From Nitrososphaerota archaeon (GTDB taxonomy: Archaea; Thermoproteota; Nitrososphaeria_A; Caldarchaeales; Caldarchaeaceae), in contig JBEPYN010000001.1 of the NCBI GenBank assembly GCA_041641305.1, forward strand, positions 352,001-416,000: DNA of 64,000 nt, in the 5' to 3' direction. Below are positions 38,126 to 40,772 of the stretch, piece by piece (within the stretch, counting starts at the first letter, position 1; the number at the start of each line of letters is the position of its first letter). The notes beneath the pieces were generated by a model. That model did not search any database. It was not told where the DNA came from and worked only from the letters and a program-made list of their open reading frames with translations. Position numbers and translations under genes: made by a program.

Positions 38126-38817
38126 AGTTGCGGAATCTCCGGCGAAAACTAAATTACCCGACTGCTTCTGCATCACGGTGGTGTTGGTTAACGAGGCCTA
38201 TATCGCAGGTGCTCTACGCGATGGCTACGTCGGAAGATACATCGACGTATATGGGAAGGTCCACAGCGTCGTAACACTTTACAACAATGACATCGATTGG
38301 CTAAAACGTGTGGCGGACTTGTTAAATTCCACATATGGAGTCAATGCGAGAATTTTTGTTAACCCCAATCGAACACCGTATCTTCGTGTATATTCAAAAA
38401 GACTTGTACAATATTTTGCTGAAAAATTCTGCCATCCCATAGGAAAGCAGACAAAATGGTGCACGCCTTTATTCATCAAGAACAGCGATGACCCCGAGCT
38501 TTGGAGGACCTACATCGCAGGATACTTTGATGCAGAAGGCGGAATTGATACGATTAAAAAACAGATCAAGTTTCACACATCTTTTGAGGGCTCAACATGC
38601 CCACCCCTTGTAGATATTAAACTAGCGCTCGCACGGTTCTTCGAAATCAGAACCGGAAACGTATGCATGTACCAAAACAATAGGGGAAAAATTCCCAGAT
38701 TTGTTCTACGCATACTCAAGTCGGATAATAGAAAGTTTTTCGGAACATTTCCACTACTTAACACTACAAAAATCCAAAGACTGTTGAAAATTATGCCGGA
38801 GCGTTCGCAACCGCAAG
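38126..38817 (+). mobile_element. Archaeal BHB-type rRNA intron (692 nt) after A1095 (E. coli numbering)
   Basis: Removal restores GTGCGTA^ACAGCTCAC. Central helix TGCG/CGCA, bulges TA^A and AG^A, intron stem GTTGCGGA/TTCGCAAC plus CTCCGGC/GCCGGAG. Confidence 0.92.
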
Positions 38818-38855
38818 ACAGCTCACCCGCCGAGGAGGGGGGCCCCGAAAATTGA
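38178..38855 (+). CDS. LAGLIDADG homing endonuclease (two motifs) of the BHB intron; stop lies in exon 2
   Basis: YIAGALRDG and YIAGYFDAEG; AT-richer than the flanking rRNA. Confidence 0.9.
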   Translation: MVLVNEAYIAGALRDGYVGRYIDVYGKVHSVVTLYNNDIDWLKRVADLLNSTYGVNARIFVNPNRTPYLRVYSKRLVQYFAEKFCHPIGKQTKWCTPLFIKNSDDPELWRTYIAGYFDAEGGIDTIKKQIKFHTSFEGSTCPPLVDIKLALARFFEIRTGNVCMYQNNRGKIPRFVLRILKSDNRKFFGTFPLLNTTKIQRLLKIMPERSQPQDSSPAEEGGPEN

Positions 38856-39635
38856 CGGGTCTAAGCGGGCCGCCGAAACCCGGGTTCACCCAGTTGTTGC
38901 TGGGTGGAGGTAGGGGGGCGTGGCGGTTGGGTGGAAGCAGGGCCGTGAGGTCCTGTGGACCGGCCGCCAATGTAGATCCCGGTGGTAGTAACAGCGGAGC
39001 GGGGTGAGAATCCCCGCCGCCGAAGGGGCAAGGGTCTCCCGGCAACGCGTCGTCGGCCGGGAGTAAGCCGGTCCTAAGCCCGACCTTAACCGGGTAGGGC
39101 GAAAGGGAAACCGGTTAATATTCCGGTGCCTCCGGAGTACGTGCGGCGACGCAAGGCCGGTGTCCGACGCTTCGGGGTAGGCTGAGCGGGGCCGTAGCCC
39201 CGTCTAAACGCATAAGCCTGGGGAGTGGCGTAAAGCCGAGAACCAGGTGAAAACGTGAACGGCCGCCCGTATGGGCGGTTCAGCTGATCCCTGGAGCCCA
39301 TGAAAAGGACACCGGCAAGGATCTCCGGAGACCGTGCCAAGAACCGACACTGGTGCCCCTGGGTGAGAAGCCCAAGGCGTCTGGGGTCACTCCAGGGCGA
39401 GGGAACTCGGCAAATTAGCCCCGTAACTTCGGGAGAAGGGGTGCCTGAGGCCTTGGCCGCGAGGCTGGGGCCTTAGGTCGCAGTGACTAGGGGGTCCTGA
39501 CAGTTTAATAAAAACCTAGGTAGCCGCGAGACCGAAAGGTTTTGAACGGCTATTGAATCCTGGCCAGTGCGGGTACTCGAAAACCGGGTTCAACCGGCAT
39601 AAGGGCCCGTAAACGCCGGGAGTAACTCTGACTCT

Positions 39636-40772
39636 CGAGCTAAAAGGGAGTCGTTAAACCCGGCTATATGCGGGGAATTCCAGAACCCTTAACTACCTTA
39701 AAAGGTAACAATGTTGAGGGTTATGAGGAAGACCCGCAGGAAACCCCTGCCAACGTGGTCGCCATGCTCACCGAATTCTCCGACATAATTGATCCAAAAG
39801 ATCTTCCGAACAAGCTAAGCCAACTCAAGTGGCATATAACGGGGTTCGTCGACGGCGACGGGAGCTTTCCAATCATTCTCTCTCCAGAGGAGACAAAGAA
39901 ATTCGGCTGGTTGATACAGCCACGCTTCGAGTTGGAGCTGAGAAGCGGCGAAGACTCCGAGACGATGCTCAGAGTGGTTTGCAGAGCAGTGGGGATTAAG
40001 CCGAAAATATTGACGAGCGAAAACTACGTCAAACTAATCGTCACAAACAGGAGACTCCTCCTGGAAAAAGTGGTGCCATTCTTCGAGAAATACAGGCCCG
40101 TAATCAAATGGCGCGACTTCAAGACGATGAGCGAGGTTGCGAAAGACCTACACCAGAAAAAGCATCTAACATATGAGGGCTTCAAGGAGATCATCCGAAA
40201 AATTTACTCGCTACCAATGAATGGCGAGTCGCGGAGAAAGTGGAGGTTCAGCGACATCATACAGGATGAGGAGCCTCCTCAACACGTGGAGAAAAAAGAA
40301 GAACATAGATTTCCCAGGGGACTTGTTCCACTGAAACACTACGTCGCCGGCTTCATAGACGCCGAAGGCTCGTTGGGATTCGTCATAAACAAGGAGACCA
40401 AGTCGATAACACCGTATCTAACAATAACCAGCTCCGAGACAGTTGTGCTACAGAAAATAAGATGGCTTCTGGGATGCGGAGAAATCAGCACAGGAAGGCT
40501 CCAAATCTACGGCGTCGACAACTTCGTCAACAGTGTTGCACCGTTTCTCGACAGACAAAAGCTCATAGCGAAAAGGACAACATACAAGATGTTTAAGCAG
40601 ATTCTTGAGACGGTGGTCAGAGGCGACCACAAAAGAAACTGGGAAGAAACCGTAGCGTTCGTCAAAATGTTGAATAAAAAGGCAGGGGGATCCTCAGAGA
40701 CCATACGCCGGGCGTCCTCATCGAAGACTGGGGGCGAAGATATGGTCCAGCACCCGTAAACCCTGGGTGTTG
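39636..40772 (+). mobile_element. Group I intron (1137 nt) at LSU position 1923
   Basis: Removal restores GACTCT^CTTAAGGTAGCC. 5' exon ends in U, intron ends in G. IGS GGGAGTC, P3 CCCGGC/GCCGGG, P4 TGCGGG/CCCGCA, R TCAGAGACCAT, S AAGATATGGTC. Confidence 0.93.
39764..40759 (+). CDS. LAGLIDADG homing endonuclease (two motifs) in the P6 loop of the group I intron
   Basis: HITGFVDGDGSF and YVAGFIDAEGSL. Frame is open from ATG 39668; ATG 39764 is the first ATG inside the loop. Confidence 0.92.
   Translation: MLTEFSDIIDPKDLPNKLSQLKWHITGFVDGDGSFPIILSPEETKKFGWLIQPRFELELRSGEDSETMLRVVCRAVGIKPKILTSENYVKLIVTNRRLLLEKVVPFFEKYRPVIKWRDFKTMSEVAKDLHQKKHLTYEGFKEIIRKIYSLPMNGESRRKWRFSDIIQDEEPPQHVEKKEEHRFPRGLVPLKHYVAGFIDAEGSLGFVINKETKSITPYLTITSSETVVLQKIRWLLGCGEISTGRLQIYGVDNFVNSVAPFLDRQKLIAKRTTYKMFKQILETVVRGDHKRNWEETVAFVKMLNKKAGGSSETIRRASSSKTGGEDMVQHP

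Follow-up and report, generated by a model that had tools for sequence, protein, structure and literature searches.

Archaeal rRNA genes are known to carry introns of the bulge-helix-bulge (BHB) type with LAGLIDADG genes, for example the 23S intron of Desulfurococcus mobilis (I-DmoI) and the rRNA introns of Aeropyrum pernix. Such introns have a long terminal stem with a BHB at its base, encode a two-motif LAGLIDADG_3-type enzyme of ~200 amino acids (aa), and depend on the splicing endonuclease EndA and the ligase RtcB. For group I introns, Nawrocki, Jones and Eddy (2018, PMC6125680) list position 1923 of the large subunit (LSU) rRNA, LSU/1923, as the insertion site of nine archaeal introns. 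Among these is IB4.9 (BA000048.1, 1314432-1313300), with the site LSU/1923, the P7 strands GAGACCA/UGGUCC, and a LAGLIDADG_1 endonuclease. According to the abstract and discussion of the same paper, a single archaeal host gene can hold BHB and group I introns together, and its Figure 1, with five sequences drawn, concerns this coexistence (PMC6125680). Here we describe the 23S (LSU) rRNA gene in a 64,000-nucleotide (nt) stretch of DNA, referred to as the window, from the genome of a Nitrososphaerota archaeon of the order Caldarchaeales (G000; contig JBEPYN010000001.1, C1:352001-416000). Very probably, this single-copy gene carries two unrelated mobile introns, each excised by a mechanism of its own. 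The positions and structures of the introns, their covariation, the reading frames, the genes for the enzymes, and the distribution among relatives are documented below, whereas splicing chemistry, splicing order, endonuclease activity, and homing are what we infer from the sequence.

The gene spans 36887-41783 on the forward strand, to which all positions below refer (RF02540, 2551 bits, model positions 1-2987), and its length of 4897 nt compares with 2987 positions of the archaeal LSU model in the Rfam search. It is the single LSU match in a genome that is 99.3% complete (1.66 Mb, 4 contigs), and at least 350 kb lie between the locus and either contig end. Searching sub-stretches with cmscan revealed two insertions, of 694 and 1142 residues after 38126 and 39636, counts that include 2 and 5 model positions, respectively; the junctions were then read against the conserved mature sequence. 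Intron 1 accordingly occupies 38126-38817 (692 nt) and intron 2 occupies 39636-40772 (1137 nt), leaving exons at 36887-38125, 38818-39635, and 40773-41783. The spliced length of 3068 nt agrees with that of intron-less relatives (3062-3073 nt), and the middle exon separates the two introns by 818 nt. A BHB and a group I intron at this spacing in one 23S gene had been proposed by an earlier, sequence-only reading of the window, and this observation proves correct to the base. With the insertion-site numbering verified against the actual Escherichia coli 23S rRNA, intron 1, of the BHB type, follows A1095 (L1095) and intron 2, of group I, follows U1923 (L1923). The site of intron 1 is the GUAAUA loop that carries A1095, in the region 1051-1108.

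Both introns recur at the same sites in a second genome of the same genus, G009. Its L1923 intron (C1:1313300-1314432) has the coordinates of IB4.9, which identifies G009 as Candidatus Caldiarchaeum subterraneum and the window organism as another species of that genus. Intron 2 agrees with IB4.9 in the insertion site, the P7 strands, and the presence of a LAGLIDADG_1 gene in loop L6, and the two introns are 82% identical at the DNA level from end to end. Intron 2 differs from IB4.9 in length (1137 versus 1133 nt), in its endonuclease, which is 81% identical, and in the species that carries it. For IB4.9 itself, PMC6125680 reports neither a complete structure nor an analysis of covariation. Given that both the principle and the group I intron of the sister species were published in 2018, the gene described here adds a second species, not a new idea. 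The sequence-only reading thus overrated the novelty of the locus, as the coexistence of the two classes had already been stated (PMC6125680).

The case for a group I fold in intron 2 comes from a structure drawn by hand for 11 aligned L1923 introns, that of the window and those of 10 relatives among 39 searched. At the 5' splice site, helix P1 (39630-39652) forms between the exon sequence GACUCU (39630-39635) plus C39636 and the internal guide GGGGAGUC (39646-39652), which places the pair U39635.G39647 at the junction. All seven pairs of P1 are paired in 11/11 sequences, and each homolog retains the U.G of the 5' splice site (11/11). The neighbouring pair 8/24 co-varies with the exon, being C:G in seven sequences and U:A in four; one family combines the exon GACUCU with the guide GGGAGUC, the other GACCCU with GGGGGUC. 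The 5' core strands (39659-39751) comprise the 5' strand of P3 (39659-39664), P4 (39670-39674/39733-39737), P5 (39678-39681/39727-39730), P5a (39684-39693/39713-39722), P5b (39695-39698/39703-39706), and the 5' strand of P6 (39744-39751). The 3' core strands (40681-40772) comprise the 3' strand of P6 (40681-40688), P7 (GAGACCA, 40697-40703/UGGUCC, 40743-40748), the 3' strand of P3 (40707-40712), P8 (40713-40719/40730-40736), and P9 (40749-40755/40765-40771). The drawn core includes the P3/P7 pseudoknot. The intron ends in G40772, the omega G, which is invariant in 11/11 sequences.

Across this set, 87.4% of pair cells are paired, compared to 37-51% when the partners are slid by 1-3 columns. 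Both sides have changed in 22 pairs, and none of 500 shuffles reached the observed covariation score. Pairing is complete (100%) in P1, P3, P4, P6 (five aligned pairs), and P7. While P7 is invariant, P3 shows C:G, G:C, and U:A at one position, and compensatory changes affect all four P5 pairs and two P6 pairs and occur in P8 and P9 as well.

These data have to be weighed against the possibility that intron 2 has lost its ribozyme activity and is either removed by EndA or in need of its LAGLIDADG protein as a maturase. Maturases of the LAGLIDADG type are known in organelles, and most of the core is overlapped by the endonuclease frame, which could constrain the RNA. Moreover, P2 is absent from the drawn structure and the Rfam score is low. 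Rfam gave no group I match when run on the whole window, the whole region, or whole introns. With the isolated 3' part, RF00028 was the sole match, and its 11.4 bits (E 0.72) fall short of the 50-bit threshold; the isolated 5' part gave chance matches only. Both results count against the group I assignment. The weak RF00028 match nevertheless falls on the conserved core surrounding P7, and the RF00028 model is split in intron 2 by an open reading frame (ORF) of ~930 nt in L6. For the orthologous IB4.9, subgroup models gave E 2e-7 in the published text (PMC6125680), and we take intron 2 to be a putative member of subgroup IB4 by analogy with that ortholog. Removal by EndA conflicts with the junctions themselves, at which a BHB cannot be drawn in either allowed register: no 4-bp central helix forms, one register yielding two wobbles in four positions and the other one Watson-Crick pair and one wobble in four. 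Core pairing is kept by compensatory changes across two families, whichever endonuclease gene resides in L6, which argues for selection on the RNA fold of intron 2. We therefore consider an inactive ribozyme unlikely and regard intron 2 as a group I intron, which may still depend on a maturase.

Loop L6 of intron 2 contains ORF2 (39668-40759), a two-domain LAGLIDADG_1 gene of 363 aa when read from the ATG at 39668, in which PF00961 matched in two stretches (E 6.3e-22). Its motifs, read by eye, are ITGFVDGDG and VAGFIDAEG, each with an acidic residue before the final glycine. The real start is likely the ATG at 39764, giving 331 aa, since the conserved protein begins with MLTEFSD in two relatives (G004 and G020). 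The frame overlaps P4-P6 at its 5' end, then runs through the 3' strand of P6, P7, the 3' strand of P3, P8, and the 3' strand of P7, and ends in the loop of P9. Upstream of the likely start, from P3 to P6, it is likewise open (39644-39763), and in G009 and G013 it is open from the 5' exon; this upstream extension probably follows incidentally from the conservation of the RNA. A recent internal duplication was considered as the source of the second domain and rejected, as the two halves share the motif only (29 aa, E 2e-5). The monomeric LAGLIDADG meganucleases of the I-OnuI, I-LtrI-like (Rps3 fusion), and I-SmaMI family are fungal mitochondrial enzymes. This family provides the closest solved relatives of ORF2, which matches it with E values from 1e-18 to 6e-25 and with both domains aligned. 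Unlike the genes of these enzymes, ORF2 resides in a group I intron of an archaeal rRNA gene, and the ribozyme core encodes its 3' end.

Intron 1 resembles the BHB introns of D. mobilis and A. pernix in its rRNA host, its predicted long terminal stem with a basal BHB, and its type of enzyme, and would share their dependence on EndA and RtcB. An unconstrained minimum free energy (MFE) fold of the whole intron with 60-nt flanks placed a bulge-helix-bulge exactly at the junctions that homology requires. In its 5' half (38120-38143), the helix strand UGCG (38120-38123) is followed by the bulge U-A|A (38124-38126), with the cut after 38125, and by the stem strands 38127-38134 and 38137-38143. The 3' half (38795-38819) consists of the stem strands 38795-38801 and 38804-38811, the helix strand CGCA (38812-38815), and the bulge A-G|A (38816-38818), with the cut after 38817. 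The predicted structure thus has two 3-nt bulges, a central helix of 4 bp, and an intron-side stem of 8 + 7 bp. Symmetric cuts at UA|A and AG|A would join GUGCGUA to ACAGCUC and so yield the sequence that intron-less relatives have. In a mini-substrate fold, native rRNA hairpin pairs were chosen over the central helix, whereas the full-length fold gave the BHB. Intron 1 contains just 52 nt outside its ORF and therefore offers no space for a ribozyme.

Shortened forms of this intron define its conserved unit. G009 has an L1095 intron at the identical site, also of 692 nt and 76% identical, with the BHB termini unchanged. Two metagenome contigs (L040 and L041), found via the exact DNA pattern of the 3' junction of intron 1, contain L1095 introns with identical termini and shortened interiors. 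That of L040 measures 425 nt and retains remnants of the endonuclease frame, while that of L041 is a 145-nt intron without an ORF, in which only the BHB and stem termini are left and which folds into the same BHB. The 3' BHB half (38795-38819) is identical in G009, L040, and L041. As the shortened forms keep the termini, these rather than the ORF are the conserved unit of the L1095 intron. The 425-nt and 145-nt forms, which lack a homing endonuclease gene, are new here. Nothing relevant was found in the literature searched on a BHB intron at A1095 or on the Aeropyrum 1085 site, which does not by itself show the site to be novel.

Two features of these termini weigh against the BHB assignment. 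Outside the central helix, on the exon side, a single pair is possible (G38119:C38819), in which intron 1 differs from the D. mobilis and A. pernix type, and its BHB is therefore a relaxed form. In addition, the BHB helices are nearly invariant across the four L1095 copies, with one C:G to U.G change, so that covariation support for the structure is nil because the termini hardly vary. One may thus ask whether intron 1 is spliced by EndA at all or is instead a degenerate ribozyme, an insertion retained in the mature rRNA, or one removed by fragmentation; the nearly absent outer helix and the location in a functionally critical loop would fit such a view. However, the 145-nt form retains just the BHB and stem termini, and the cut points restore the universal GUAACA loop. 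The A1095 loop has to be restored, because the genome has no other 23S gene. Furthermore, the genome encodes a pair of EndA paralogs, and pairs of this kind are reported to cut relaxed BHBs (PMC5829648). Any of these fates is thus very improbable, and the predicted structures support both class assignments, BHB for intron 1 and group I for intron 2.

Nearly all of intron 1 is taken up by ORF1 (38178-38855), a two-motif LAGLIDADG_3 gene of 225 aa with a GTG start, in which PF14528 matched in two stretches (E 1.5e-10). The motifs, again read by eye, are YIAGALRDG and YIAGYFDAEG, and an acidic residue precedes the final glycine in both. Intein-type domains are its closest solved relatives (E 1.7e-5), and protein-based scans detected no ORF1 relatives in the genome contigs or the metagenome contigs. 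The similarity between ORF1 and ORF2 is confined to the motif level (pairwise E 0.002, 59 aa). The reading frame of ORF1 has no stop within the intron. Its stop codon (38853-38855) falls in exon 2, 38 nt past the junction, which is a point against the reading proposed here and again sets intron 1 apart from the D. mobilis and A. pernix type. The earlier claim of an apparently intact two-motif LAGLIDADG gene in each intron is confirmed, both frames being open and matched by Pfam in two stretches, with the qualification that the stop of ORF1 lies outside its intron. In an excised circle, ORF1 would continue for 48 codons, cross its own start codon out of frame, and stop at 38272. The absence of an in-intron stop is shared by the ORF1 counterpart of G009 and by the unrelated L1085 intron of G004, which has the same exon stop.

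The genome also encodes the machinery that BHB splicing would require. PF01974 matched twice, at 97 and 53 bits, to two EndA paralogs of 181 aa each (L002:1234-1779 and L003:1249-1794). One of them shows the catalytic pattern Tyr/His/Lys in our reading of the ORFs and the other lacks the His. We read the two as putative alpha and beta subunits of an enzyme of the alpha2-beta2 type. This fits C. subterraneum, for which a heterotetrameric splicing endonuclease has been reported (PMC3082918). RtcB is present as well (PF01139, 475 bits). It is encoded as one open frame of 975 aa (C1:535991-538729; L004, L005), in which the matches to Pfam positions 1-50 and 46-426 lie ~1380 nt apart; this looks like an intein of ~460 aa inside the very ligase that the BHB intron needs.

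A second BHB is predicted in the processing stem of the 23S precursor. The 5' strand (36860-36882, bulge 36872-36874) pairs with the 3' strand (41785-41807, bulge 41797-41799 or 41798-41800). When the 23S flanks were joined, RNAfold (MFE) predicted a 5-bp helix with a 3-nt bulge on either side of it, the two on opposite strands, and sliding U36867 onto A41800 yields the canonical 8-3-4-3-8 arrangement. With an intron BHB, a processing-stem BHB, two EndA paralogs, and RtcB all found, the expectation that maturation would involve EndA and a ligase at two BHBs is well founded.

The maturation of the transcript may be envisaged as follows. The pre-rRNA would fold such that each splice site of intron 1 lies in a 3-nt bulge flanking the 4-bp helix. 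EndA, read as alpha2-beta2, would cut both bulges, and RtcB would then join the exons and probably circularise the intron. In intron 2, pairing of the internal guide with the 5' exon would bring the U.G pair to the 5' splice site. This would be the point of attack for an external guanosine, after which the terminal G would dock for exon ligation. A further step by EndA and RtcB, at the canonical BHB of the processing stem, would release the pre-23S rRNA. Each intron has its own LAGLIDADG endonuclease gene; the two enzymes, from different families, would cut intron-less alleles and so spread the introns separately.

The distribution of the two introns among relatives is consistent with such separate histories. 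Both are present in G000 and G009; L1923 occurs without L1095 in G004, G013, and the second family; L1095 occurs without L1923 in L041; and neither is present in, for example, G012, G017, and G018. The occurrence of all four L1095/L1923 combinations among relatives is new here. It supports gains and losses of each intron on its own and speaks against an artefact of assembly. Together with the different Pfam families of the two nucleases, it also backs the view of the sequence-only reading that the nucleases are dissimilar and result from independent invasions. That the gene is a chimeric assembly of alleles, with the introns on different DNA molecules, could be suspected of a 4-contig assembly given that rRNA genes are often mis-assembled, but is excluded in practice and the least probable alternative of all, because G009, a genome assembled independently in a single contig, carries the two introns at matching sites and its coordinates imply an 818-nt spacing there too, the single LSU locus of G000 lies far inside its contig, and other introns accompany the L1923 intron in the same gene in 7/10 relatives.

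Fifteen LSU genes of the order were compared with that of an intron-less relative to map their insertions. Thirteen intron sites are occupied, with a maximum of seven per gene (G013). Group I core motifs are confined to the L1923 introns, while the other LSU introns bear terminal inverted repeats and are, on the strength of these, taken as putatively BHB-type. Besides its L1923 group I intron, the 23S gene of G013 (L024; G013:C1:26703-33578) carries six further insertions, and among these seven the endonuclease genes are intact in some, degenerate in some, and missing from the remainder. L041 (8021-8730) and L024 share an intron after GGGUAAG, at reference site 2085, that contains a LAGLIDADG ORF of 201-211 aa. 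This site lies in a conserved stretch just downstream of L1923, and in L041 the intron adjoins the empty L1923 site.

Within the L1923 lineage, the endonuclease gene in L6 has not remained the same. A two-domain LAGLIDADG_1 gene is found in G000, G009, and G013, a single-domain LAGLIDADG_1 gene in G004 and G020, and a two-motif LAGLIDADG_3 gene in six genomes of the second family. One L1923 ribozyme lineage with three endonuclease types in L6 is new here. The LAGLIDADG_3 type can be aligned from end to end with endonucleases of BHB-type introns, for example the second small subunit (SSU) intron ORF of G000 and that of the L1085 intron of G004, at 25-28% identity and with E values down to 1e-16. 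We therefore tentatively suggest that one ribozyme lineage has held three endonuclease types, the third of them homologous to those of BHB introns, through exchange between the intron classes, and that the L1095 intron records a cycle of gain and loss (692, 425, and 145 nt). The case for exchange is drawn from low-identity pairwise alignments rather than a rooted tree, and this scenario is plausible though somewhat less than evenly balanced in its favour.

The sole 16S rRNA gene of the genome is located on another contig (C2:678829-681974; L006:1501-4646), unlinked to the 23S gene. It measures 3146 nt against a 1478-position model and contains two or more ORF-bearing introns of the BHB type (L006:2832-3383, 183 aa; L006:3693-4301, 202 aa). 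LAGLIDADG motifs are visible in the 202-aa ORF, and this 16S gene yielded no group I core motifs. In C. subterraneum, two SSU introns have been reported (PMC3082918).

For the organism, these results mean that the archaeon would have to run two unrelated splicing chemistries, in addition to BHB-based precursor processing, on its sole 23S transcript, and that one of the intron sites is the loop carrying A1095. The comparative set is more useful than the single gene, as it combines the four presence/absence states, mini BHB introns without an endonuclease, and endonuclease swaps within one conserved ribozyme. It thereby provides material for studying homing cycles and the exchange of endonucleases between intron classes in archaea. 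If true, such exchange would make this clade a natural series for tracking the movement of endonucleases between protein-spliced and self-splicing introns.

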